A stretch of DNA of 64,000 bases from Minisyncoccota bacterium. Its GTDB lineage: Bacteria > Patescibacteriota > Minisyncoccia > Phycocordibacterales > UBA918. The position numbers were made by a program, and so were the translations under genes. Position 1 is the first letter of the stretch. Every line of letters begins with the position of its first letter. Under the pieces are notes generated by a model. It was not told the origin of the DNA, made no database searches, and worked only from the letters and a program-made list of their open reading frames with translations. Where the stretch lies: NCBI GenBank assembly GCA_041688155.1, contig JBDNIW010000012.1, forward strand, positions 202 to 64,201, read 5' to 3'. Below, piece by piece: positions 4,545-44,830 of the stretch.

Positions 4545-6026
4545 TCAGCGCGATAAAGGTAATTCAAAAATAAGACTGGTATCTTCATTGTAGTTAGCCT
4601 GGGCAATTAAGTTGCCCTCAGCATCAAACACCACTGATGGTCCAGATCTGGTAGCCCGAATGACTACTTTACGATGCTGTGTTGCGTACAGCCTGGCCTT
4701 TGTAGCATTGAAAGTGCTAGGTATTTCGTTTGAAAACATCGCTTCTGACCCTATTGAAAGCAATAGGTCTGATTGGTCCAGTTGCTTGGCTATGTGATCG
4801 GCGTTTGTTATCTCAGAGCAGATTGCATTTCCAATTACGAAATCACCAATTATAACAGGGGCTGTGTCTATGCCTGGCGTCGCATCAATCGGGGTGCTGT
4901 TCAGGCCAATATTTTGTGCCCAAAGAGGCGTATAATCAAAAAAAGGAAATAGATTTGCTTTTTGGTACGTAGCAATAACTTCGCCGTCTTGCCAATATAC
5001 GGTTTCATTAAAAAATTGACCTTCAGTGTACCTCGTATACCAAGTCACAAATATTATTTCAGGTGCCACGTGTTCTCGTAGCCAAGAACTAAATTGTAGG
5101 TGTGTAACTGTGATTATTTGTCGATCGAAAGTAAGGTTATCGTCACTACTTACACCCAATACTCCTGACCAAGGATTGAATGGATATATGATCATGTCCA
5201 ATTTGTGTTCTGACAAGTCAGCTAATTTTGCTTCTAATCTAGGAAAAGCAAACTGTCTGTCAATGACCTTGCCAAAAGCTTCGTTCTGATCAGCAGTTGG
5301 GTCTTGAATGATTGCAATTTTGAGACTCGCATTTTGTAATGGTGACAAACTGGGGCTACTTGAAACTATTGTACCCAACAGCCCAGCCACTACTATTCCA
5401 CATAAAAAAGAAAGAACCTGTTTACCTTTCCAGGGCTGAGTTTGAATTGCTTCGGCCAGAAGTGCATTTATAAAAACAACACCTAATATGTACCATTCAG
5501 CTGCATGTGAAGTGAATTGTGACGGTAGGGCAGAGACAAGTTCAACTGCTACATACACAAAAGAACCGTAGTTGAAGCCATATAAAATATACGAGAGTAA
5601 GACATCAACGCCTGCAAAAGTACAAAAAATACCAACCCTCACCCACCAGATAGATACAGGGAGTAGTTTTGTTTTAAGAAGCCAAATACCAGTACCCCAT
5701 AGTAGAGACATGATTATGGCTAGGAGTACTATGCCGATACCAACTGCATACATGAACCAGGTGAAAAGTACGGCCTCGTTAAGCCAAGAGAATCCGCTCA
5801 TAGTAACGCCTGTAGTGTAGCCAGCAAAAACCACGGCGTACATACCAACTCCAATAAGTATTTTGTACAAAGATGGTGTGTTAAATATATATATGTAGAG
5901 AGGTATAAGTGCAACAAAACCAAGTGCTGTAAAGTTGAAAGGTGGCAGGGAAATGATAGACGCTAAAGCAGCTATGACAGGGAGTGTAAAAGACGAGCGG
6001 TTGTGCATATGGGTTAAAGAGTACAA
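4545..6026 (-). CDS. apolipoprotein N-acyltransferase (Lnt)-like protein: polytopic N-terminal membrane domain plus C-terminal CN-hydrolase domain
   Basis: 493 aa. The N-terminal half is hydrophobic (LPPF..., many TM segments). The C-terminal half has nitrilase/CN-hydrolase features including GNAICSE (catalytic Cys context, as in the ICYE of Lnt). Confidence 0.65.
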   Translation of the reverse strand: MYSLTHMHNRSSFTLPVIAALASIISLPPFNFTALGFVALIPLYIYIFNTPSLYKILIGVGMYAVVFAGYTTGVTMSGFSWLNEAVLFTWFMYAVGIGIVLLAIIMSLLWGTGIWLLKTKLLPVSIWWVRVGIFCTFAGVDVLLSYILYGFNYGSFVYVAVELVSALPSQFTSHAAEWYILGVVFINALLAEAIQTQPWKGKQVLSFLCGIVVAGLLGTIVSSSPSLSPLQNASLKIAIIQDPTADQNEAFGKVIDRQFAFPRLEAKLADLSEHKLDMIIYPFNPWSGVLGVSSDDNLTFDRQIITVTHLQFSSWLREHVAPEIIFVTWYTRYTEGQFFNETVYWQDGEVIATYQKANLFPFFDYTPLWAQNIGLNSTPIDATPGIDTAPVIIGDFVIGNAICSEITNADHIAKQLDQSDLLLSIGSEAMFSNEIPSTFNATKARLYATQHRKVVIRATRSGPSVVFDAEGNLIAQANYNEDTSLIFELPLSR

Positions 6027-7219
6027 ATTAGAGAGCGACGCTTATTGCCAATTACCGATAAAGAACCCACCGGCTGCACGTGTACTGTTGCAATAAGGTC
6101 ATCTTGAATTGCTTTACGCAGCGAATAGTCTTTTGCTAGATACAACTTATTTAGCACATGTTCAGACAACAGGTTTGCACCACCACAGCGCGTGACACTA
6201 TCTTGCAATATTTCCAGTCGAAAATTAATATCATTACCTGTTCCAGACTCAACGTGGAGTTGGTATTCATCGGCTTTGAGGCTTGCTGCAGCGCAGCACT
6301 CGTCAAGGGTGCCTGCTCGTAATTCGAAGCCAGCTACTCTAACCACGTCCACCCCATTTCGTCCGTTGAGTTCAAGTATAGGCATTTGGGTTGACTCATC
6401 TCTACCTGAGATCGAAAAATAATCTCCTGTGCGGTATCTAATGAGTGGAAAAGCGGGATTACTATCGTATGTTATGACGAGTTCATCGTCAATTAACTCT
6501 GTAGCAATAAGTGCACTCTGATTAGGAACAAACCCAGTTTGATTGTTTGTAATCATGTCTTGAGTTGGACCTAGTATAAATTGACCAACCTCTGCTGATG
6601 CATACATGTTTATGATTTTTGCAAAAGGGTAGTGCGATCGAAGTTGCTTCATGATGGTATCATTACTCAACTCGGAAGCTACCACAAGTAGTTTAATGTT
6701 TGCTGTTGAGCATTGTGTTGCAAACCGTAATGCAATAGTTGGTGTAGCAAAAAGAGCATCGCAGTTGAATTTTTTTAGTAGCGCTGCACTGGTGGATAAA
6801 TTACTAATATCACCAAATACTGGCACAAGCCCAGAGTTTGACTGACGACACTGCTGGATGAAAGATGCACTAAAACTTTTGAGTAGTGGTTGATATAAGA
6901 TCAGGGCTCGATTGACAGGTAAATTAAAAGCAGGATTAAAATAGTAATCTTCGACTTGACCAAAAAAGAGTAACAAAGGATTTCCGCTTGAAGTTCCCGA
7001 CGTGTAAGCCGTGAACACAAGTTGATCGGCGGGGACATAACAACGTTCATCCGGTGAAGTCTTAGCAATTTCACTACGGGTCAGGAATGGTAAATCAGCG
7101 AGTGCTGCTATATCAGTGGTTAGATATTTGTTCCTGTAAAAATTGGAATATGTTGTGCTTGAGACTCGCCCAAGCAGAGCTCGCAGCCGTTCAGTATCGC
7201 AGTGCAAAAGCATTGTCAT
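6014..7219 (-). CDS. PaaK-like adenylate-forming enzyme (phenylacetate-CoA ligase / F390-synthetase family)
   Basis: TSGTSSGNP P-loop-like motif and YRTGD adenylation motif (LIRYRTGDYF). 401 aa. It overlaps the Lnt-like gene by 13 nt, so the two are probably co-transcribed. Confidence 0.6.
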   Translation of the reverse strand: MTMLLHCDTERLRALLGRVSSTTYSNFYRNKYLTTDIAALADLPFLTRSEIAKTSPDERCYVPADQLVFTAYTSGTSSGNPLLLFFGQVEDYYFNPAFNLPVNRALILYQPLLKSFSASFIQQCRQSNSGLVPVFGDISNLSTSAALLKKFNCDALFATPTIALRFATQCSTANIKLLVVASELSNDTIMKQLRSHYPFAKIINMYASAEVGQFILGPTQDMITNNQTGFVPNQSALIATELIDDELVITYDSNPAFPLIRYRTGDYFSISGRDESTQMPILELNGRNGVDVVRVAGFELRAGTLDECCAAASLKADEYQLHVESGTGNDINFRLEILQDSVTRCGGANLLSEHVLNKLYLAKDYSLRKAIQDDLIATVHVQPVGSLSVIGNKRRSLICTL

Positions 7220-7258
7220 ATTGTACCAAAATTAGCGTTATTTTGGTACAATAAAGGT

Positions 7259-7789
7259 ATGCAAACACTCTTGTTCGGTATTCTTATAACTGCAATCTGG
7301 ATTTTTATCTGGATTGATTTAGCTAGGTGCTCAGATTCAAACCGCAAGGCACTGCCAGAGAATACGAACATCAAAGTGGTGGGTGTTATTCTTCTGGTTG
7401 CTATTGCTTGTTTTTACACTGCGCTTTACTCAGTTTCATCTTATATATATCTCGCTCCTTTGTACGCACAATTTGTTTGCGTTGGATTACTCTTCTGCGG
7501 AGCCTATCTTGTTGTAGGGGCAAGAAGGCAAATGTCAGCACTCACGGCAAGAGAGGTTTTGTTTTCTGTGAATACAAAATATTCAGTCGGTGGCGTGTTT
7601 CAAAAATTTACCCACCCAATGTTTTTTGGTATCGCTATCATTTTGATTTCTAGCTGGTGTTTACTCCCAAATATTATACCGGGTGTACTTTTATTAATAT
7701 CACTGGCATTACTGTGCGTAAAAGCAGCGCTTGAGACAAGTGAACTTAGGAAACAATTGAATTTACGAGAACCAGGTATTGATCAGTAA
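7259..7789 (+). CDS. ICMT/PEMT-family membrane methyltransferase-like protein
   Basis: Polytopic membrane protein. The C-terminal motif YSVGGVFQKFTHPMFFG resembles the RHPxY.G motif of isoprenylcysteine carboxyl methyltransferases. The track ORF starts at 7202, but the likelier start is MQTLLFG. Confidence 0.5.
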   Translation: MQTLLFGILITAIWIFIWIDLARCSDSNRKALPENTNIKVVGVILLVAIACFYTALYSVSSYIYLAPLYAQFVCVGLLFCGAYLVVGARRQMSALTAREVLFSVNTKYSVGGVFQKFTHPMFFGIAIILISSWCLLPNIIPGVLLLISLALLCVKAALETSELRKQLNLREPGIDQ

Positions 7790-8537
7790 CTAGACGTGAC
7801 TGTTCGTTTGCTTGTAATGTAACAATATCGATTTCATCAAGTAAATCTTGATTAGGAATATTACCCGTAAGCGTTTGATCTAGTAAGTCCATAAGTTTAA
7901 TCACCAATTCAGAGTACTTAAGAGTTTCTGTTTCCAAGATGAATATCTGAGATTTTATCGTGTCAGCAACTATGTCAGAATTTCTGGCATACGTAGCTAG
8001 ATTTGTTGTGGCAAGATTAGTTGACGCTGCATACTCTCTGGACGCACTAACTTCAACTTGTGCATTATTTAATATTGCAAAAAAACCAACAAAATTTCCA
8101 GAAAGTGCTTTCTGCTGTACTAATTCCATTGTTGTCTGTACATCACTGAATAGCTTTTGGTTGAGAAGATCATTTTCTGTTGAGGCTACCTCTAAGAGGT
8201 TGACAAAATCCGGCGTTACCTGACTAGAAGCGGTGATGGTCAGCTGATTCACTGAGGATCGCGTGTTAGTCGTTATTCCTCCTTCTGGTCTGGTTGGAAA
8301 TTGTAGAGCATCTCTATCAGCTTGTGTGGGAACTGAGCCAAAAGTTGGTCTTTCGAGTACCGCATCCTCTAGCAGTTGTTCGAGTTGGGTGATACGGTTC
8401 TCCAGTTTTAAATTTGTTAACTCGACCTGCCCGCGATAAATAAATGTTTGTAGTGTGAACAAGAGTCCACTTATTAATATTCCAGCAGTAAATGCAGCAA
8501 TTATTTTTATCATCATATACTTGTAACTATACATCAT
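7746..8537 (-). CDS. hypothetical membrane-anchored coiled-coil protein
   Basis: N-terminal TM helix followed by a long low-complexity, coiled-coil-like region. No family recognised. Confidence 0.4.
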   Translation of the reverse strand: MMYSYKYMMIKIIAAFTAGILISGLLFTLQTFIYRGQVELTNLKLENRITQLEQLLEDAVLERPTFGSVPTQADRDALQFPTRPEGGITTNTRSSVNQLTITASSQVTPDFVNLLEVASTENDLLNQKLFSDVQTTMELVQQKALSGNFVGFFAILNNAQVEVSASREYAASTNLATTNLATYARNSDIVADTIKSQIFILETETLKYSELVIKLMDLLDQTLTGNIPNQDLLDEIDIVTLQANEQSRLVTDQYLVLVNSIVS

Positions 8538-8694
8538 TTTTTATTCCAGATACTAGTAATTAACAAATTGCCAATAAACACACGATTTAGTCGCGTATTA
8601 ATTTTGTTAATACGGAGATGGTATACTAAATTAGTCGATAGTTCGGTTAAAAGAATTCCAAAGTTTATGCAAAGGCATCTGATATAATTAAAAC

Positions 8695-9315
8695 ATGTTT
8701 TCACAAGTATCTAATAGTTTAAAAAAAAGTGTTGTTGTTGTTGTGATGGTCGCAATGCTTACTTTTTCAGTACCAAAAGAGTCGGAAGCCATTTTGTTGC
8801 TGCTGTTCGCACCGCTTACTATCGGTGCTACAGTTGCTCTCATTATTACTGAGATAGCAATTCTTTGTGCAGTAGGTGTGATTTGTGGAGGTGGGGGTGG
8901 GGGTGGCACGATAGGCGGAGGTCCAGGTAGTGCTTTTGTCGGTGATTCTTGTTCAGCTTCTAATTATTGCGGTCAAACCGGTGCTGGAACAGTTCAAAGT
9001 GATGGTTTTTGTACTGCATTACCGCCGCCAAATAGTGCGTGTACCAATGGATCGTTTCCAGATGATGCGCTAACAATAAACCCAGGTTTGGTAAGGATAG
9101 GTGATGATGTTGTAGTTAGTTATGATGTAGGTGTTTTTAACTATCCACCAAACTGTACTTTGAGTGGACCTGCCCCAATTGGGGTCATGCCTCTTACTAC
9201 ACAAACTGGCAGTTTGACAGTGACTGCATCAGCTGCGCACTTCTTTAGGCTTGAGTGTGGTACAACAAATGCGGAAGCAAAACTAGACTTGGTTGGTATT
9301 ATTCAAGAGATTTAA
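8695..9315 (+). CDS. hypothetical secreted/membrane protein with a Gly7 run and a Cys-rich ectodomain
   Basis: ATG start. N-terminal signal-like segment, then a TM helix, then GGGGGGG, then multiple Cys (CSASNYC, CTALPPPNSAC, ...). Confidence 0.45.
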   Translation: MFSQVSNSLKKSVVVVVMVAMLTFSVPKESEAILLLLFAPLTIGATVALIITEIAILCAVGVICGGGGGGGTIGGGPGSAFVGDSCSASNYCGQTGAGTVQSDGFCTALPPPNSACTNGSFPDDALTINPGLVRIGDDVVVSYDVGVFNYPPNCTLSGPAPIGVMPLTTQTGSLTVTASAAHFFRLECGTTNAEAKLDLVGIIQEI

Positions 9316-9336
9316 AAATTAATAAATCCAGATACA

Positions 9337-9840
9337 ATGAATAATGTCACAAACAATAACGTCTTTGCTTCATTTCGAGACAGCAAGACAAAAACACTTA
9401 AACTACGATTCTTGTTGGTGATTGTGTTTGGGTTCTTCTTCTATAGTGCTGGCATTTATATCTTACTTCGGGGGCTCTCAACGATTATGTTGGCTGAACA
9501 AGTAACCTTATTAAATTTTCTCCACTTATTTGCAACGGCGATACCGCCATTATTGATTGGATTCGGTTTACTAACTCTCAGGCATTGGTCAATATATGTA
9601 CTTGTTGCACACGTCACTCTGGCGGCACTTTCAGTACTTCCTTTATGGTACTTCGGTCTAAGTGAGTTGATTAGTAGTACCTTATCTAACAATTTGGTGA
9701 TTTTAGCTATTTTATTAGTCATGATTTCGCTTTCTTCGGAGTTGTACAAATCACGATACGGCATACTTCTCACAGTACTGTACGTATTGCTGCTGACTGT
9801 GACAAGTGGAACGCAGATATACTATCGATTGCAACTTTAA
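9337..9840 (+). CDS. hypothetical integral membrane protein (about 5 TM)
   Basis: Hydrophobic ORF that follows directly downstream of 8695..9315. Confidence 0.4.
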   Translation: MNNVTNNNVFASFRDSKTKTLKLRFLLVIVFGFFFYSAGIYILLRGLSTIMLAEQVTLLNFLHLFATAIPPLLIGFGLLTLRHWSIYVLVAHVTLAALSVLPLWYFGLSELISSTLSNNLVILAILLVMISLSSELYKSRYGILLTVLYVLLLTVTSGTQIYYRLQL

Positions 9841-9965
9841 AGTAGTTTTACCGGACAGTTTTTACCTTTGAAGCGTATTAAACAAGGTGTTACTTTATAA
9901 TATTGGATTAGTGCTAGTACTGATTTGATGATGTAACATTATATTATGTGTGCTATAAAGACAGA

Positions 9966-11495
9966 ATGAAACAAATAAGTTTAGGCAGTGATTTTACCTT
10001 TCAAGCTTTTATTGAAGCGGTTTTTTCATCTCCGGACTTAGATATTCCTTCGTTGCAGAGTGCCAACAAAACAGTGCAAGCTTCAGCTGAAGAAATTGTA
10101 TATGGCTGGAACACCGGTTTTGGACCGATGGCTCAAATCTATGTTGGTAAGCATGAACGGGTAAATCTTCAATACAATCTCGTCCGTAGTCATGCCTGCG
10201 GGGCAGGAAAACCCCTGTCAGATACATTGTGCCGAGCCATTTTGATTGCTCGACTGCAGACACTCTCCTTAGGATATTCAGCTGTAACAGAGCCTTTGCT
10301 GAGCGCTATGAAAAAGTTGGTAGTAAATCGTATACACCCGGTGGTGTATGAGCACGGTTCTGTTGGGGCGAGCGGAGATTTGGTACAGTTAGCGCACGTT
10401 GGCCTAGGACTCATTGGAGAAGGGGAGGTTTGGTACGAGAACGTTCTGATGCCTGCTGCCAAGGCACTTGAGGCGTGCGGACTAACTCCTTATGAACTTG
10501 GAAACCGTGATGGTTTAGCATTAATCAATGGGACAGCTGCGATGACAGCAATCGCAGCCATAAATATCAATCAAGCAGAGCAACTCTTTGAGCAGGCTAT
10601 CATCAATACGGCTTTAATTTATGATATATGCGAAGTACATCGAGATGTTTTTGATTCGCTTGTGGCACAAGTTCGTCCCCACCCAGGTCAGCGATACGTT
10701 ATTGATCGTTTGAATCATTATCTGCCGACCAGCTCCCATACCAGAGCTACTCCACTAATTAATTCAAAACAGATTAACGATTCAGAAACGTCACTTTTGT
10801 CCCATAATCCACAAGATATATATTCGTTACGTTGCGTTCCTCAAATACTTGGTCCAATACAAGACTCGATTCAGAGGGCTAAACAAACAGTTACAATTGA
10901 GCTCCAAAGTGTTACCGACAACCCAATTTTCAGTGCTAACCGTATTGTACACAATGGTAATTTTCACGGTGATTATGTTTCGTACGAAATGGATTGTTTA
11001 AAAATTGCGATAACGAAGCTGAGTTTATTGCTTGACCGACAAATGCATTTTTTGCTCCACGAACGAATCAACCAAAAATTCCCGCCATTTTTAAATGCCA
11101 ATACTCCAGGTCTAACTCTCGGACTCCAAGGATTACAGTTCGTTGCTACTTCAACAACAGCGGAAAATCAAACGATAAGTAATCCGATGAGTATTCACAG
11201 TATTCCAACCAATGGTGATAATCAAGATGTGGTTAGTATGGGTACCAATAGCGCTCTACTAGCTCACAAAGTTGTGAATAATACTTTTGAAATTTTAGCT
11301 GCCCACACAATTGCAGTAGTTCAGGCTACTAGGTTAAGCGGTAAGGGTGAATCTTTACCAAAAGAGTTATCCATGAAATACCAAATCGTAAACGAATTGA
11401 TTCCAGTGCTAGATAAAGATATGTCTCTACAGCCGGTTTTGGCAAAAGTGGGCCAAGATCTGCAGTCGTATCCACATACCAAAAAAACAAAATAA
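9966..11495 (+). CDS. aromatic amino-acid ammonia-lyase family enzyme (HAL/PAL/TAL; MIO prosthetic group)
   Basis: Ala-Ser-Gly MIO triad in GSVGASGDLVQLAHV and family-typical NTGFG. About 510 aa. No hutU, hutI or hutG neighbours. Confidence 0.8.
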   Translation: MKQISLGSDFTFQAFIEAVFSSPDLDIPSLQSANKTVQASAEEIVYGWNTGFGPMAQIYVGKHERVNLQYNLVRSHACGAGKPLSDTLCRAILIARLQTLSLGYSAVTEPLLSAMKKLVVNRIHPVVYEHGSVGASGDLVQLAHVGLGLIGEGEVWYENVLMPAAKALEACGLTPYELGNRDGLALINGTAAMTAIAAININQAEQLFEQAIINTALIYDICEVHRDVFDSLVAQVRPHPGQRYVIDRLNHYLPTSSHTRATPLINSKQINDSETSLLSHNPQDIYSLRCVPQILGPIQDSIQRAKQTVTIELQSVTDNPIFSANRIVHNGNFHGDYVSYEMDCLKIAITKLSLLLDRQMHFLLHERINQKFPPFLNANTPGLTLGLQGLQFVATSTTAENQTISNPMSIHSIPTNGDNQDVVSMGTNSALLAHKVVNNTFEILAAHTIAVVQATRLSGKGESLPKELSMKYQIVNELIPVLDKDMSLQPVLAKVGQDLQSYPHTKKTK

Positions 11496-29288: not shown

Positions 29289-29690
29289 GAGATGGCGGGA
29301 GTTGGTCACGAATCACTAAGTATATTGTTTCGCTGCGCTCACAATCTACTAAGTGTTCTCGACCCCGCCTCAACTGTTGTAGAGCCACATGTTTCCGTCT
29401 TTCAACTCCCGATGAAAGCAAAACTGTTTGCTTTCTCCATCTCCACCGAGCAAACAAAAAACGCTCTTGCGAGCGTTAATGTTTCCTGGTGGAGATGGCG
29501 GGAGTTGTCCTGACGGTCACAAATTCGCTTACGCTCATAAGTGCCGCGGGACATGGCTCGACTGTTTTGTGCCTTAGGAAAAGGCACAAAACATATCTCC
29601 GCTGTTCAACTCCCGACGAAAGCAAAACTGTTTGCTTTCTCCATCTCCACCGAGCAAACAAAAAACGCTCTTGCGAGCGTTAATGTTTCC
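29289..29690. repeat. two tandem ~210-bp units downstream of ssrA, each ending in a copy of the tmRNA 3' terminus (GGAGATGGCGGGAGTTG) and each carrying a copy of the ssrA terminator hairpin
   Basis: About 105 bp of each unit are near-identical (1 mismatch) and the rest has diverged. The tmRNA 3'-end fragment occurs 3 times in total (29289, 29481, 29691). Confidence 0.85.
29660..29684 (-). terminator. ssrA terminator (AACGCTC-GCAA-GAGCGTT followed by TTTTTTG on the minus strand)
   Basis: Hairpin plus U-run immediately 3' of the tmRNA CCA end. Confidence 0.75.
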
Positions 29691-36356: not shown

Positions 36357-37862
36357 CTAGGGCGCGACGACAATATCGCCTTGGTTAAGACCAGTAATCG
36401 CAGTGAAGCCGTCGTTACCAGTGAGGGTGACGTTTACCGTTGTGGTGGCTACCAGTTCGCCGACTTTGGTGCGCACTTGTGCACCGCCATCGGTCTGTGT
36501 GACGAATCGTGACGGGACGCGCAGACTGTCAGCGGCGTCAATAATCACGATGTCGATGTCAGCGTTCAGGCCACTACGCATCCAAACGGGAGTGTCATCA
36601 AGCGAAATAATGGCTTCGTAGTATGCCACCCCATCAATCTCGGTGGCTTGCAATGAGATGAATTCGATTGATCCAAGTAGCAGTGCGTCCGGTTGCGTGT
36701 CAAACACCGTGCGGACCGATTGTCCTAGGGCTAGCTTGCCAATGTCAATCTCCGGAATCCTCGCGGTTAATTCAAAATCAGTGGCCGCAAGCAGGGTAAT
36801 CACCGGTGTCGTGCCAACCGTCTCACCCGGCAAACTGTCGATCACGGTAATCGTGCCAGCAAATGGCGCGCGGATAGTGCGGTCTGCAATCTGGGCGTCG
36901 ACCCGGGCAATGCGAGCATTAGCGCTCGAGATGTCGGCGTTGGCGCGAGCGACTGATTCGCTGCGGGCTGGGGCATTGGTACTCACGGCGTTGATTTCGG
37001 CCAGTTCGAGGTCTTGCTCAGCGATAGTGATAGCGCTTGCGGCTTGGGTTTTGGCCAGGGTGTACCCATTACGATTAGCGATGTAGCGGGCTGATTCTTT
37101 GTTCGGGATGTCTATAGTCCAGGTCGTATTGCTGTAGCGCGAGTTAGCGCTAAATAGTACCTGAATCCCGCAATCACCCATGGTAACCGGCTGGTCGCTC
37201 GATACTGCATACGTACCAGACTCCAACCCAGATAGCCTGAACGAATACCCAGAGTTTGATCCAGACGAATACGTCTCGAGTGTATAGCGACCTTCCGCCT
37301 CGCAGGTGTAGGTCCCGGAGACTGTTGGTGCAATTGCCTCTTCACCCGGGTCGTCACTAGCGGCTGTGAGGTCAGTTGAGAGCAAGGTGCGGTACGCGTT
37401 GTTGATCAGATCAGCCTGGGTATTTCTGATAGTGGTCAGGGTGGTGGCCTTAAACGCAATTGCCCCGACCGTAGCAGCGCGCGATTCTGATTGGGGACCA
37501 GCTAGGAGTTCGTCGCGTGTAGCCACCGCGCGCGCGAGGTTCGCAAACGCGTCTTGCCGGTCGGCCTGCAAGGCACGGGATTCGAGTGTGATTAGCACAT
37601 CGCCCGCGGCCACCACGTCACCCCTGTTGACGTTGACGTTGGAAATAATCCCGGTGGTAGGAAACGCCAGCTCAGCGCTTTGCTCCGCCTCAACCACCCC
37701 GGTGACTGACACCAGCTGCTGCACGCTACCGCGGTCGACCGTAGCAGTCACATAGTCAATCGGCTGGTTACTGCGCACTGTCACCACCATAAAAATAATA
37801 AACCCAATCACCGCCAACGCAATCGCAACGTGAAAGGAACGGCTCATCAACAGCTTTTTCAT
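36357..37862 (-). CDS. HlyD/MacA-family periplasmic adaptor (membrane-fusion protein) with an enlarged central domain
   Basis: N-terminal TM, lipoyl and beta-barrel motifs (VVAAGDVLITLES...), 501 aa. Confidence 0.7.
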   Translation of the reverse strand: MKKLLMSRSFHVAIALAVIGFIIFMVVTVRSNQPIDYVTATVDRGSVQQLVSVTGVVEAEQSAELAFPTTGIISNVNVNRGDVVAAGDVLITLESRALQADRQDAFANLARAVATRDELLAGPQSESRAATVGAIAFKATTLTTIRNTQADLINNAYRTLLSTDLTAASDDPGEEAIAPTVSGTYTCEAEGRYTLETYSSGSNSGYSFRLSGLESGTYAVSSDQPVTMGDCGIQVLFSANSRYSNTTWTIDIPNKESARYIANRNGYTLAKTQAASAITIAEQDLELAEINAVSTNAPARSESVARANADISSANARIARVDAQIADRTIRAPFAGTITVIDSLPGETVGTTPVITLLAATDFELTARIPEIDIGKLALGQSVRTVFDTQPDALLLGSIEFISLQATEIDGVAYYEAIISLDDTPVWMRSGLNADIDIVIIDAADSLRVPSRFVTQTDGGAQVRTKVGELVATTTVNVTLTGNDGFTAITGLNQGDIVVAP

Positions 37863-37920
37863 ATGCCCTAGTATAGCATCCTAGATATGTAGGGTGTTGC
37901 TGCACTGATGTTAGAAAAAC

Positions 37921-38262
37921 CCTCTGTCTGCCCACTAGAACTTGAAACTTACAGTTTCAGTACAGGTTATCGACAGTTTATTTCGAAAACTCATAAACCT
38001 GTCTGATAACCTTCTCAAATAGTTTCCCAAACTATTTGAGCCTAGAACCACGAAGGTATATAGATATTCAAATTCTGAACATCTATACAGTCCTTCGCTC
38101 CAGATCTCAAATACTCGTAAACTCGTGCTTGAATCTTACTCTAGGACTGTAAGCTTCGCGCTCTACTTGGGCAAGTGAGGAGGTGTAGGAAAGTTTACTT
38201 TCGTATAGCCTCCGAACGCAGGACAAGCAAGCTTTGCTTACCGATTGAGCTACTTGGTTTGT
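37921..38262 (-). pseudogene. tRNA-like gene copy split into four ordered pieces (D-arm, D/anticodon, anticodon/T, T-loop/acceptor) by three 75-95-nt inserts; paralog of the adjacent tRNA
   Basis: Pieces ccaagtagctcaatcgg / tagagcgcgaagctta / tataccttcgtggttctagg / tttcaagttctagtgggcaga match the intact tRNA at 38290-38362. They are colinear and on the same strand. Confidence 0.6.
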
Positions 38263-38289
38263 ATATGGCACAAAGAAACACTTTATTTG

Positions 38290-38362
38290 TCCGCCCGCTA
38301 GGACTTGAACCTAGAACCACGAAGGTATAAGCTTCGCGCTCTACCGATTGAGCTACAGGCGG
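38290..38362 (-). tRNA. tRNA with anticodon loop CUUAUAC (anticodon UAU, Ile-AUA-type); CCA not encoded
   Basis: A cloverleaf folds by hand: acceptor CCGCCUG/CGGGCGG (one G-U), D-arm GCUC/GAGC, anticodon stem CGAAG/CUUCG, T-arm CUAGG-UUCAAGU-CCUAG. Confidence 0.7.
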
Positions 38363-38764
38363 ATGTCGGTGCTGTCTACTATAGCGCGAAGGAGCCCAGG
38401 GGACAACGGACTTGACCGATTTTTTACAAACACGTATAACAAGAAGTGGAAGGTGATCCCGCCTCCGTTCCGCCTCTTTTCAACTGGAGTGACCCATGAA
38501 ATATTTCCTGCACACCCCCGTGACGTATGTTACTTCGCAAAAGTCTTGCTTCAGCTGAAAGGAGGCCCAATCTAAACAAGGACACAGTGAGGTAAGCTCT
38601 CACGCAAGATCCTGACGTTGTGTGTCACTTGGGTCCAGTGGACTGACTCGCAACAGACCATGAGATTGTCGCCCACGACAATTAGACTGGTAAATAAAAG
38701 ACCGCACCCCAAAAGGTGCGGTCGAATCGCGTCTACCGTCCAACTATTGCTATACTATAATTCT

Positions 38765-39289
38765 ATGAAACCTGCCCTGTTTATTTTTGGATTACTGATA
38801 ATGAGTGGATTTGCTTCGACCGCCTTGGCCGCTGGTGCAACTACGACGGTGCTTACTAGCACGCCAACCCAAACCGTCGAGGAATCAGTTCGGGAGTACT
38901 TTGCAGACATTCCCGTCATGATTGAAATCGCGCGCTGCGAATCCAAATTTCGCCAGTTTGCTGATAGTGGCAATGTGCTGCGCGGTGGAGTGGGTGGACA
39001 GATGGTTGGGGTGTTTCAGTTTTTTGATCGGTACCACACCAGCCCCGCCTATGAGCGAGGGTTCGACATCGAGACACTCGCGGGTAACCTCGCCTACGCC
39101 AGATACACCTATGAGCAAGAGGGAACAACCCCTTGGAACTCCGCCCGGGCGTGTTGGGATATTCCCAGCGTGAGTACAGCCAAAACGGTTGCCGTATCAG
39201 ACGCTGAACTGACAAAGCAGATCGCATTGCTCAGGCAAATAATCGAACTGTTGCAAACAATCCTTAGTTTGCAACAGGGTAGAGTGTAG
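38765..39289 (+). CDS. secreted Rpf/transglycosylase-like domain protein
   Basis: Signal peptide, then IARCESKFRQF...GGVGGQMVGVFQF, which resembles the CESGGNW...GLFQ transglycosylase-like motif. Confidence 0.55.
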   Translation: MKPALFIFGLLIMSGFASTALAAGATTTVLTSTPTQTVEESVREYFADIPVMIEIARCESKFRQFADSGNVLRGGVGGQMVGVFQFFDRYHTSPAYERGFDIETLAGNLAYARYTYEQEGTTPWNSARACWDIPSVSTAKTVAVSDAELTKQIALLRQIIELLQTILSLQQGRV

Positions 39290-42854: not shown

Positions 42855-42898
42855 AAATTAAAAAGACCCAACAGGGTCTTTTTAATTTGCGGAGACGA
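42847..42898. terminator. 52-bp perfect palindrome (24-bp arms) that includes the last 8 nt of the tRNA-Ser and an inverted copy of them
   Basis: cgtctccgcaaattaaaaagaccc-aaca-gggtctttttaatttgcggagacg. Confidence 0.7.
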
Positions 42899-42902
42899 AG
42901 CA

Positions 42903-43190
42903 ACAGTCCGGGGGACTGTTGCGTGAGGATTCGAAAAGCTTTTGCGTCAGATTGGGAGCGGAGCGAACTAATCTGTCCAAAAGGTATACTGCTTGTGTAA
43001 CAAGCGAATCCTCTCGTCAATTACGTCACCCGGTCCGGGGGACTGTTGCGTGAGGATTCGAAAAGCTTTTGCGTCAGATTGGGACCGAAGGGAACCAATC
43101 TGTCCAAAAGGTATACTGCTTGTGTAACCAGAGAATTCTCTCGTCAATTACGTCACCCAGTCCGGGGGACTGTTGCGTGAGGATTCGAAA
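42903..43190. repeat. 2.3 tandem copies of a ~127-bp MITE-like unit. Each has a 5' hairpin (caacagtccgggggactgttg), a conserved core hairpin (CTTTTG.GTCAGATTGG...CCAATCTGTCCAAAAGG) and a 3' copy of the tRNA-Ser 3' end (GAATCCTCTCGTC)
   Basis: Direct repeats are visible. The same core family occurs again at 44470-44760. Confidence 0.85.
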
Positions 43191-43277
43191 ATCTTGCTTT
43201 GTTTAAGATGTGTAGTAGTATTTTTGATGGATGTTGCCTAAATCGCAACACAACCTTCATGGAAGAGGAGATGCACC

Positions 43278-44218: not shown

Positions 44219-44315
44219 CACGGAGAGTTGGCTGAGTGGATAAAATAGTCTGGGAGACTGTTTTATCCGACCAAAGGGAGGCGACGAACTCGTTCGACCC
44301 GAAGCCAACTCTCCG
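44219..44315 (+). pseudogene. degenerate tRNA-like element sharing the first 18 nt of the downstream tRNA, with an 11-bp acceptor-like stem (GGAGAGTTGGC/GCCAACTCTCC)
   Basis: The 5' 18 nt are identical to the tRNA at 44338. The internal arms do not form a canonical cloverleaf. Confidence 0.45.
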
Positions 44316-44337
44316 TGGATGAGTAAAGCGAATAGAT

Positions 44338-44424
44338 GGAGAGTTGGCTGAGTGGTCGAAAGCAGCAGTTTACTAAACTGCCGAGCCTTTGCGGGCTCCA
44401 AGGGTTCGAATCCCTTACTCTCCG
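44338..44424 (+). tRNA. type-II (Ser-like, G73) tRNA with an atypical anticodon loop UUACUAA (anticodon ACU?)
   Basis: Acceptor GGAGAGU/ACUCUCC, 3-bp D-stem, anticodon stem GCAGU/ACUGC, variable hairpin GAGCC/GGCTC, T-loop GGGUUCGAAUCCC. Confidence 0.6.
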
Positions 44425-44432
44425 CAAATACC

Positions 44433-44830
44433 AAAACCTAAAGCATGTCTTTAGGTTTTGTTGTATTTTGCGAGAGAGTAAGGGATTCGAAAAGCTTTTG
44501 AGACAGATTGGGACCGAAGGGAATCAATCTGTCCAAAAGGTGTACTGAACTCGTAGAGTTCGAATCCCTTACTCTCCGCCAAAACAAAAAGTACCCGCAA
44601 GGGTGCATTTTTGTAAGCGGACAGTAAAGTAACAGTTCGGGGAACTGTTACGTGGGATTCGAAAAGCTTTTGAGTCAGATTGGGACCAAAGGGAACCAAT
44701 CTGTCCAAAAGGTATACTGCTCGTGTAACGAGAGAAATTCCCTTACTCTCCGCAAATACCAAAACCTAAAGCATGTCTTTAGGTTTTGTTGTATTTTGTG
44801 CGAGAGTGAGGGGTTGGAAAAGAGCTGGAG
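44433..44830. repeat. nest of tRNA-linked repeats: two MITE-like units with the same core as 42903-43190, bounded by inverted and direct copies of this tRNA's 3' end, plus a duplicated terminator hairpin
   Basis: cgagagagtaagggattcgaa (inverted 3' end) ... core ... gttcgaatcccttactctccgcc (direct 3' end). The second unit ends the same way. The terminator AAAACCTAAAGCATGTCTTTAGGTTTT occurs at 44433 and again at 44761. Confidence 0.8.

Follow-up and report, generated by a model that had tools for sequence, protein, structure and literature searches.

A probable tRNA-Ile(UAU) pseudogene colonised by small hairpin elements beside an intact tRNA-Ile gene of a Patescibacteria bacterium

Multi-intron and split tRNA genes of Thermoproteales and Nanoarchaeota contain up to three short inserts in the D, anticodon and T loops, with related inserts shared between tRNAs. 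These archaeal genes yield functional tRNAs, for which a bulge-helix-bulge motif and a splicing endonuclease are required. Miniature inverted-repeat transposable elements (MITEs), REP/REPIN sequences and the Rickettsia palindromic elements are short, hairpin-forming, multi-copy and gene-less; they lie in either orientation and can sit in the RNA-coding sequence of reduced genomes. Tyrosine integrases, for their part, reportedly use sites in tRNA genes that lie in the anticodon, T and D loops. Patescibacteria are rich in tRNA group I introns, which measure 184–894 nt, include insertions at position 35/36 and hide the gene from standard finders (Nakagawa et al. 2026; PMC13011429). In the tRNA-dependent lysogeny of mycobacteriophages a disrupted host tRNA is complemented by a phage-borne tRNA of the same isotype (Guerrero-Bustamante and Hatfull 2024; PMC10865867). 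Here we describe positions 37913–38257 of a 64-kb stretch of DNA (64,000 nucleotides, called the window throughout) from a bacterium of the Patescibacteria (candidate phyla radiation, CPR), where a fragmented second copy follows an intact tRNA-Ile with the anticodon UAU on the minus strand.

An earlier note, made from the letters of the window, had considered this second copy to be either a colonised tRNA pseudogene, which it preferred, or a multi-intron tRNA. Our analysis supports the former. With a probability of about 0.7, region 37913–38257 is a non-functional graveyard of older tRNA-Ile(UAU) copies colonised by hairpin elements; it is probably co-transcribed with the working gene. The inserts belong to element families found elsewhere, and a defective host copy lies adjacent to an intact one. 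Because the elements occur in both orientations and in different loops, have defective hosts with an intact partner, are absent from the closest relative and gave no intron or ribozyme match, colonisation of a dead gene at the DNA level is favoured. The anatomy of the region, the family membership and conserved folds of its inserts, the two orientations of related elements and the defect of the second copy were observed directly.

The comparison included 16 syntenic loci that were inspected in detail (labels L001–L163). In the window an HlyD-like efflux adaptor gene (36357–37862, minus strand) lies directly downstream of the locus; its relatives come from CPR genome bins. Two covariance models were used, model R1 for the T element and model R2 for the A1 element. 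The label R1 was also given to a tRNA relic at 38257–38228, and relic R1 and model R1 are two distinct things. The features of the locus are as follows.

38378–38406, minus strand: promoter-like site TTGTCC-17-TATAGT just upstream of the intact tRNA-Ile
38290–38362, minus strand: intact tRNA-Ile, anticodon UAU, acceptor CCGCCTG/CGGGCGG (ARAGORN; Rfam RF00005, 69 bits)
38258–38289, minus strand: trailer or spacer CAAATAAAGTGTTTCTTTGTGCCATATACAAA after the intact tRNA-Ile, resembling the trailer of L133
38228–38257, minus strand: relic R1, the degenerate 5' half of an older tRNA-Ile copy, holding segment 1 and ending in ...GGTAAGCAAAGCTTG, with homologues in relatives
38175–38227, minus strand: leader between relic R1 and copy 2, with an internal hairpin GGAGG..GAAAGTAAACTTTC..CCTCC (from the sequence)
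38150–38174, minus strand: 5' part of copy 2, comprising acceptor TTGCCCA, AG, TAG^AGC, the 5' strand of the anticodon stem and loop CTTA
38059–38149, minus strand: A1 element, a 62-nt three-helix domain (38149–38088) and a 29-nt terminal hairpin TATAGATGTTCA-GAATT-TGAATATCTATA (38087–38059) (model R2)
38041–38058, minus strand: middle of copy 2, comprising the rest of the anticodon loop, the 3' strand of the anticodon stem, the variable region and the 5' strand of the T stem (TACCTTCGTGGTTCTAGG), identical to the intact gene
38014–38040, minus strand: H hairpin CTCAAATAGTTT-GGG-AAACTATTTGAG, first part of the T-loop insertion
37945–38013, minus strand: T element, 69 nt, structured, second part of the T-loop insertion, with TTCAA duplicated on both sides (model R1, 73.3 bits, E 1.7e-13)
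37927–37946, minus strand: 3' part of copy 2, comprising the T loop, the 3' strand of the T stem, acceptor 3' strand TGGGCAG and discriminator A
37913–37926, minus strand: 3' flank of copy 2, CAGAGGGTTTTTCT, identical to the L139 flank and containing a GGGTTTTT run

Four tRNA-like segments lie downstream of the intact gene, in order and on the same strand, as the earlier note had observed. Segment 1, GTAGCTCAATCGGTA (38253–38239), matches the intact gene at 15/15 positions, segment 2, a 17-nt repeat (38166–38150), at 17/17, and segments 3 and 4, both 25-nt repeats (38060–38036 and 37949–37925), at 96% and 84%. They are collinear with the intact tRNA-Ile and separated by hairpin-rich gaps of 73, 89 and 94 nt. 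Folding of the 271-nt stretch 38185–37915 gave −107.9 kcal/mol, with z = −9.5 against shuffles. The segments do not, on the other hand, form a single copy cut by three inserts. Segment 1 belongs to a separate relic, and copy 2 starts at TTGCCCA (38174) and contains two inserts. What had been taken for an insert in the D-loop is not an insertion into one gene, since relic R1 recurs separately in relatives and the acceptor of copy 2 follows it. The distance from the intact gene to copy 2 is only 115 nt.

Relic R1 (CCAAGTAGCTCAATCGGTAAGCAAAGCTTG, 38257–38228) consists of segment 1 and the next 15 nt, and no 5' acceptor strand precedes segment 1. It ends in a degenerate ...GGTAAGCAAAGCTT, which has the same degenerate form in L133 (twice) and in L009, and a looser version of this ending, GGAAAGCATAGCTTATAC, occurs in L163. 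Homologues of the relic were found in L133 (twice, 95% and 89% over 38 nt), L134 and L009. The leader that follows is less readily placed: its 3' end CCTCCTCAC, judged by eye, tentatively resembles the leader before the functional tRNA of L136, and homology to the ‘A2’ leaders of L007 and L009, suggested by one short hairpin motif, is unproven. L136 (1793–1862) has two copies of the first 9 nt of tRNA-Ile (CTGCCCGTA); a 70-nt insert separates the one nearer the promoter from the intact gene, and the end of this insert resembles the leader before copy 2.

Copy 2 is defective in its own right. The TTGCCCA at the end of the former ‘insert 1’ (38174–38168) pairs 7/7 with TGGGCAG (37934–37928) and stands directly before AG-TAG-AGCGCG; therefore 12 nt (CTCAATCGGTAG) are missing from the D arm of copy 2, between two GTAG repeats. 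Its anticodon-loop insert, which had been put near position 37/38, lies between CTTA and TAC, that is anywhere from 33/34 to 35/36 because TA is duplicated. Certain tRNA-like bits (CCTAGAG...TTCAAG; GAGCGAAGG) that had been assigned to insert 1 are found in insert 2. The T-loop insert is present as described, made up of the H hairpin and the T element between copies of TTCAA.

These defects bear directly on the alternative that the locus is a genuine multi-intron tRNA, with inserts removed from the RNA by self-splicing or by cleavage and ligation to yield a second tRNA-Ile(UAU). The inserts do lie exactly in loops, are highly structured and have conserved folds, segments 2 and 3, which resemble exons, do not differ from the working gene, and the same phylum provides a precedent for insertion at or next to 35/36 (PMC13011429). 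ARAGORN, run on the region with intron search and a lowered threshold, nevertheless called the intact gene only. The four collinear segments, when joined, gave 0 genes and a product without an acceptor stem, and copy 2 minus its two inserts, which has no complete D arm, yielded no better than a strained model, in which the acceptor stem has a C.C mismatch and the D stem is 3/4. Restoring CTCAATCGGTAG to the latter produced a normal tRNA-Ile(UAU). Rfam searches at gathering thresholds and at E<=10 (window 37500–38800, L007 and L133) returned nothing but tRNA, with no match to Intron_gpI or to any ribozyme. The inserts, at 73–94 nt, are also shorter than the known group I introns of tRNAs in the phylum, A1 does not end in G, and the insert hosts of relatives are degenerate and always stand alongside an intact gene. 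As to the archaeal type, the host is here bacterial (tmRNA and SmpB are in the window), the joined product is no tRNA, and EndA or RtcB domains were absent from the ~50 window open reading frames (ORFs) scanned. Taken with the antisense family members and the missing copy of the 94% relative described below, this leaves a multi-intron tRNA barely credible. Accordingly, the pieces downstream of the intact gene should be annotated as tRNA relics and repeat elements, not as an intron-containing tRNA.

The inserts of the colonised copy belong to several families. A1 is a 91-nt insert in the anticodon loop of copy 2. Model R2 scored 80 bits in the window, 85 bits in L003 and 81.5 bits in L143; in all three A1 begins directly after ...GAAGCTTA of a tRNA-Ile copy, and TA is repeated at the far side in the homologues. 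Compensatory changes were seen in 8 of the 21 pairs of its fold. The terminal stem of A1 bears a nested working tRNA at its tip in L003 and L143; in the window the same stem is an empty hairpin.

The T-loop insertion of copy 2 (H and T together, 94–96 nt) has more copies. Hairpins of the H type with GGGR loops are present at 42900–42922, 44237–44269 and 44629–44651, all beside tRNA-Ser genes; the type occurs in the window only next to these genes and in copy 2. An alignment of seven T elements gave a two-domain fold in which 14/23 pairs show compensatory changes. Model R1 detected five full T copies in the window: besides the one in copy 2, each of the two tRNA-Ser genes is followed by two; the earlier note had asked for other copies of the inserts, and four more of T were thus found in the window, besides those in relatives.

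42936–43131, plus strand: two tandem T elements (42936–43004 and 43063–43131) downstream of tRNA-Ser(GCU), each flanked by an inverted and a direct copy of the 3' end of the tRNA
44492–44732, plus strand: two T elements (44492–44560 and 44664–44732) downstream of tRNA-Ser(ACU), each flanked by an inverted and a direct copy of the 3' end of the tRNA

The four copies behind the tRNA-Ser genes scored 89–94 bits. Copies in L133 and L139 were matched as well, and a partial, weak match lies behind the tmRNA. The model tells the strands apart, true copies scoring ~90 bits on the right strand and 14–15 bits on the wrong one. Members of the T family are antisense in the anticodon loops of tRNA-Ile relics of L006, L009 and L143 (32–36 bits; L143 22 bits), which is evidence against RNA splicing. 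An antisense H and T unit in L003 (19600–19710, 32–36 bits) is intergenic, ~1.8 kb from the tmRNA and without a recognisable tRNA frame around it, the sole T-family copy seen outside an evident tRNA context. A third insert family (CACCAC..AGAGTATTTCC) is sense in L005, L006, L007, L133 and L139 and antisense in L004 and L163.

In copy number, hairpin fold, use of both orientations and lack of coding capacity, the T element within RNA-coding sequence is like MITEs, REP/REPIN sequences and the Rickettsia palindromic elements. It differs from them in its almost exclusive location in loops derived from tRNA or tmRNA and in its frame of inverted repeats that reproduce the 3' end of the local tRNA. 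It has neither its own terminal inverted repeats nor a regular target-site duplication, and no cognate transposase was found in the window. A MITE/REPIN-like mechanism fits the copy number and the folds, but comes without terminal repeats, regular duplication or enzyme. Two known classes of insertion were considered and rejected: neither an IS630/Tc1-type (TA duplication) nor an IS200/IS605-type event (TTAC-like target) is accompanied by terminal repeats, a consistent target or a transposase.

The closest relative, L131 (94% identity in the HlyD-like protein), shares the 3' part of the tRNA (nt 1–38) and the first 45 nt of the trailer, window 38289–38245 (trailer and first 13 nt of relic R1) being 100% identical to L131 39–83. 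It then diverges inside relic R1 into unrelated sequence and a pyrD-like (dihydroorotate-dehydrogenase) gene before the efflux operon, and models R1 and R2 detected no T or A1 element in it. The fragmented copy, absent from so close a relative, is therefore dispensable. As L131 1–200 and L130 show, the locus is a hot spot of rearrangement. In L005 (1–285) the contig opens with a ~60-nt perfect inverted repeat over the tRNA-Ile 3' end and the efflux-operon promoter, around back-to-back C elements; this repeat could be real or an assembly fold-back artefact.

Dispensability speaks against a functional structured trailer, in which the tRNA-like shell and its hairpins would be kept as a non-coding RNA or as a processing or termination module insulating the tRNA unit from the efflux operon. 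Several observations would suit such a role. Copy 2 as a whole folds into a single stem-closed structure followed by GGGUUUUU, there is no canonical terminator between the intact tRNA-Ile and the HlyD-like gene, relics of the R1 type keep the same degenerate sequence across genomes at 56–74% HlyD identity, and in seven relatives the working tRNA is enclosed by covarying flanking stems. The structure is, however, absent not only from L131 but also from L001 and L132, which have a plain tRNA-Ile(UAU) only, and the architecture is different in nearly every genome. A maintained function is thus very unlikely.

The history of the pseudogene can be traced in the other relatives. L133 (74% protein identity) has the arrangement of the window without the two inserts: intact gene, trailer, relic R1, leader and a copy with the same GTAG|AGC junction. 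The 3' end of copy 2 with its flank (GTGGGCAGACAGAGGGTTTTTCT) is identical over 23 nt to the functional tRNA-Ile of L139, and therefore copy 2 is taken to be the former resident gene; its acceptor differs from that of L139 by a single C-to-U transition. The acceptor stem and trailer of the working tRNA-Ile of the window differ from those of copy 2 and L139. The TTGCCCA/TGGGCAG pairing was at one time regarded as a sign of selection through compensatory changes, an interpretation that was dropped because L139 shows the native stem with that single transition.

In L003, L007, L009, L143 and L163 an outer tRNA-Ile copy, split in its anticodon loop, encloses an intact tRNA-Ile(UAU). Degeneration is visible in the outer copies: that of L003 has a broken anticodon stem, that of L007 has lost 1 nt and contains a T-loop insert, and those of L009 and L163 have degenerate 5' halves. 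An intact tRNA-Ile(UAU) was present on every contig that has the whole locus and an interrupted copy (L003, L007, L009, L133, L139, L143 and L163). The inner gene is enclosed by complementary flanks whose sequence differs from genome to genome, with duplex energies of −12.6 to −34.8 kcal/mol compared with −4.6 to −11.6 kcal/mol for shuffles. The 5' half of the outer copy in L007 is identical to the working gene of L001, and the inner gene has the AATCGG/TTCAAGT body of the window genes; therefore the inner gene looks acquired.

Such replacements could alternatively suggest leftovers of integrase activity. Phage- or island-like elements would have integrated in the D, anticodon or T loop of tRNA-Ile, some with their own replacement tRNA-Ile, and later shrunk to a few hundred bases. 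Displaced att fragments would then be represented by copy 2 and the remaining pieces, and the surviving att-flanking arms by the ‘elements’. This explanation agrees that copy 2 is a pseudogene and differs on the nature of the inserts. The fragment borders fall in anticodon, T and D loops, the kind of site that tyrosine integrases use, and the L163 insertion with its inner tRNA is flanked by the direct repeat CTTATAC(C)TTCG. Copy 2 retains the native 3' flank and the working gene has a foreign trailer, and behind tRNA-Ser and tmRNA stand arrays of their 3' ends, every one of them with a terminator copy after it. A partial copy beside an intact one, with loop borders, is also the picture of displaced tRNA fragments of the Islander type (PMC4383910) and of tRNA-dependent lysogeny, and the relatives, with a disrupted resident gene replaced by an incoming tRNA of the same isotype, recall the latter (PMC10865867). 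With regard to attL/attR fragments, a loop border next to a regenerated intact gene was found, but not an integrase and an island between them.

Several further results separate the locus from islands and prophage remnants (PMC4383910; PMC10865867). No integrase or phage gene occurs in the window or adjoining any locus examined, the ‘islands’ would be just 70–190 nt, and the pieces tile the whole tRNA. The compensatory changes in T and A1 indicate selection on the fold, which att arms would not need. The T element forms the centre of a perfect inverted repeat made from the 3' end of the tRNA and does not stand beside a simple core site, and the same element occurs in both orientations. Searches of sequence collections gave no support: four scans of IMG/VR (junction, C element, B element and tRNA-Ile body) returned chance or unrelated matches only, and BLAST found no match for the fragment among phages or for the tRNA-Ser array among plasmids. 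A metagenome scan with the pattern GCACGAGN{3,8}GAGTATTT was too loose and yielded only chance matches among the matches listed. We therefore regard integrase leftovers as unlikely, though less so than a spliced tRNA or a maintained trailer.

According to the colonised-pseudogene model, the locus would have been built in layers. The degenerate relic R1 and its leader would represent the first, and a once-complete second gene, copy 2, the former resident, the second. Copy 2 would have been inactivated by three lesions, namely the loss of 12 nt of the D arm at the GTAG/GTAG repeat, the landing of A1 in the anticodon loop and the landing of the H hairpin and T element in the T loop. The present working tRNA, with another acceptor stem and trailer, would have taken over the decoding of AUA. 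The inserts are envisaged as selfish or recombination-borne hairpin elements that land, as DNA, in loops of tRNA-type genes, and the turnover of the locus may proceed by repeated arrival of replacement tRNA-Ile cassettes, comparable to the intact genes nested in the anticodon loops of decayed outer copies in relatives.

A number of observations weigh against this model. Model R2 found no further A1 copies in ~290 kb searched, so that A1 is single-copy per genome and may not be a multi-copy element; being the leader of a nested working tRNA in relatives, it may instead be an inherited leader rather than a mobile element. The duplications are irregular (TA for A1, TTCAA for H and T, a 2-nt loss for antisense copies), and no transposase, integrase or reverse transcriptase was present among the ~50 window ORFs scanned. 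The 100% identity of segments 2 and 3 to the working gene and the 7/7 pairing of the copy 2 acceptor are unexpected for an old pseudogene. The identity probably reflects gene conversion between tandem copies, and the pairing may derive from the one transition relative to L139. Finally, the GTAG|AGC junction is also present in L133, and a distal fragment with a similar start in L143, so that it could mark a boundary of site-specific recombination and not a decay deletion.

We would go further only tentatively. The clade may carry small structured DNA elements (H, T, C and A1) that home, in one orientation or the other, to the hairpin loops of genes for tRNA and tmRNA and of the relics of such genes, at times generating inverted copies of a tRNA 3' end, together with mobile tRNA-Ile(UAU) cassettes that replace the resident through the anticodon loop. 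The copy in the window would be one snapshot of this process, a proposal we consider doubtful as yet. The wider association is plain in the window itself, where all four tRNA-type genes (tRNA-Ile, two tRNA-Ser and tmRNA) are trailed by units of copies of their own ends and conserved hairpin elements. As far as could be found in the literature searched, small structured elements tied to tRNA-type genes in a CPR clade seem to be undescribed. If mobile, they would be parasites that target loops in the most conserved genes of very small genomes, and would offer a route for the horizontal replacement of tRNA genes. This would be relevant to the question of how a minimal but complete set for decoding, with its unusual UAU reader of AUA, is maintained in CPR bacteria.

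For the intact gene, the description in the earlier note proved accurate. The minus-strand tRNA at 38290–38362 folds canonically into a cloverleaf with a 7-nt anticodon loop; ARAGORN assigned it to tRNA-Ile with anticodon TAT (38289–38362, minus strand) and the Rfam tRNA model matched it over its full length (38290–38362). A tRNA-Ile(UAU) is present in at least 12 related assemblies (L001–L004, L007–L009, L132, L133, L136, L139, L143, L163), in many of them upstream of the same efflux operon, and the motif ...TTGTYC...GCGCTATAGT also precedes the first tRNA-Ile piece in relatives. Since it is kept at this locus in many relatives, it is presumably a conserved, working gene. AUA is used at 10.7 per 1000 codons in 15 long ORFs of the window. 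A tRNA-Ile with genomically encoded UAU is unusual, yet known from several bacteria, such as Mycoplasma mobile and others that lack tilS (Taniguchi et al. 2013; PMC3575796). The Ile-type body with an encoded UAU, conserved in the lineage, and the use of AUA are shared with those bacteria and would be compatible with tilS-independent decoding of AUA. Whereas Mycoplasma mobile is known to lack tilS, the present tRNA gene is known from 64 kb of sequence alone; neither tilS nor a tRNA-Ile(CAU) was found in the window, which says little about the whole genome.

The other tRNA-type genes of the window have elaborate surroundings. Behind each tRNA-Ser (42855–43200 and 44426–44800, plus strand) the order is terminator hairpin, inverted tRNA 3' end, H, T and direct 3' end, and this unit is repeated two to three times in tandem. 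Upstream of tRNA-Ser(ACU) (44222–44316, plus strand) there is a shell made of the first 18 nt of the tRNA, an H hairpin, ~40 nt and the reverse complement of the first 11 nt (GCCAACTCTCC). Downstream of the tmRNA (29300–29690, minus strand) two tandem units are composed of a terminator, an inverted tmRNA 3' end split by a hairpin, a ~70–97-nt insert and a direct copy of AACTCCCGCCATCTCCAC. Of the two direct copies, the first reaches ...CACCA and the second diverges past ...CTCCAC; the second insert is the weak partial T match.

One of the tRNA-Ser genes is itself unusual. The gene at 44338–44425 (plus strand) has the anticodon ACU (loop TTACTAA) and scored 57.9 bits with the Rfam tRNA model, compared with 43.8 bits for the neighbouring tRNA-Ser(GCU). 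A serine tRNA with A34 is unusual; it is one G-to-A change from the GCU loop, and no tRNA-Ser(ACU) was seen in the relatives scanned. The window is otherwise ordinary chromosome with a GC content of 47% and includes a ribosomal-protein/SecY cluster, SmpB with the tmRNA, RecG, FtsH and ABC transporters. The ribosomal-protein run (4545–11495; S3, L16, L14, L24, L5 ... L6, L18, S5, L15, SecY) is broken between L5 and L6 by ~8 kb, which hold several ORFs without a Pfam match and an aromatic amino-acid lyase.

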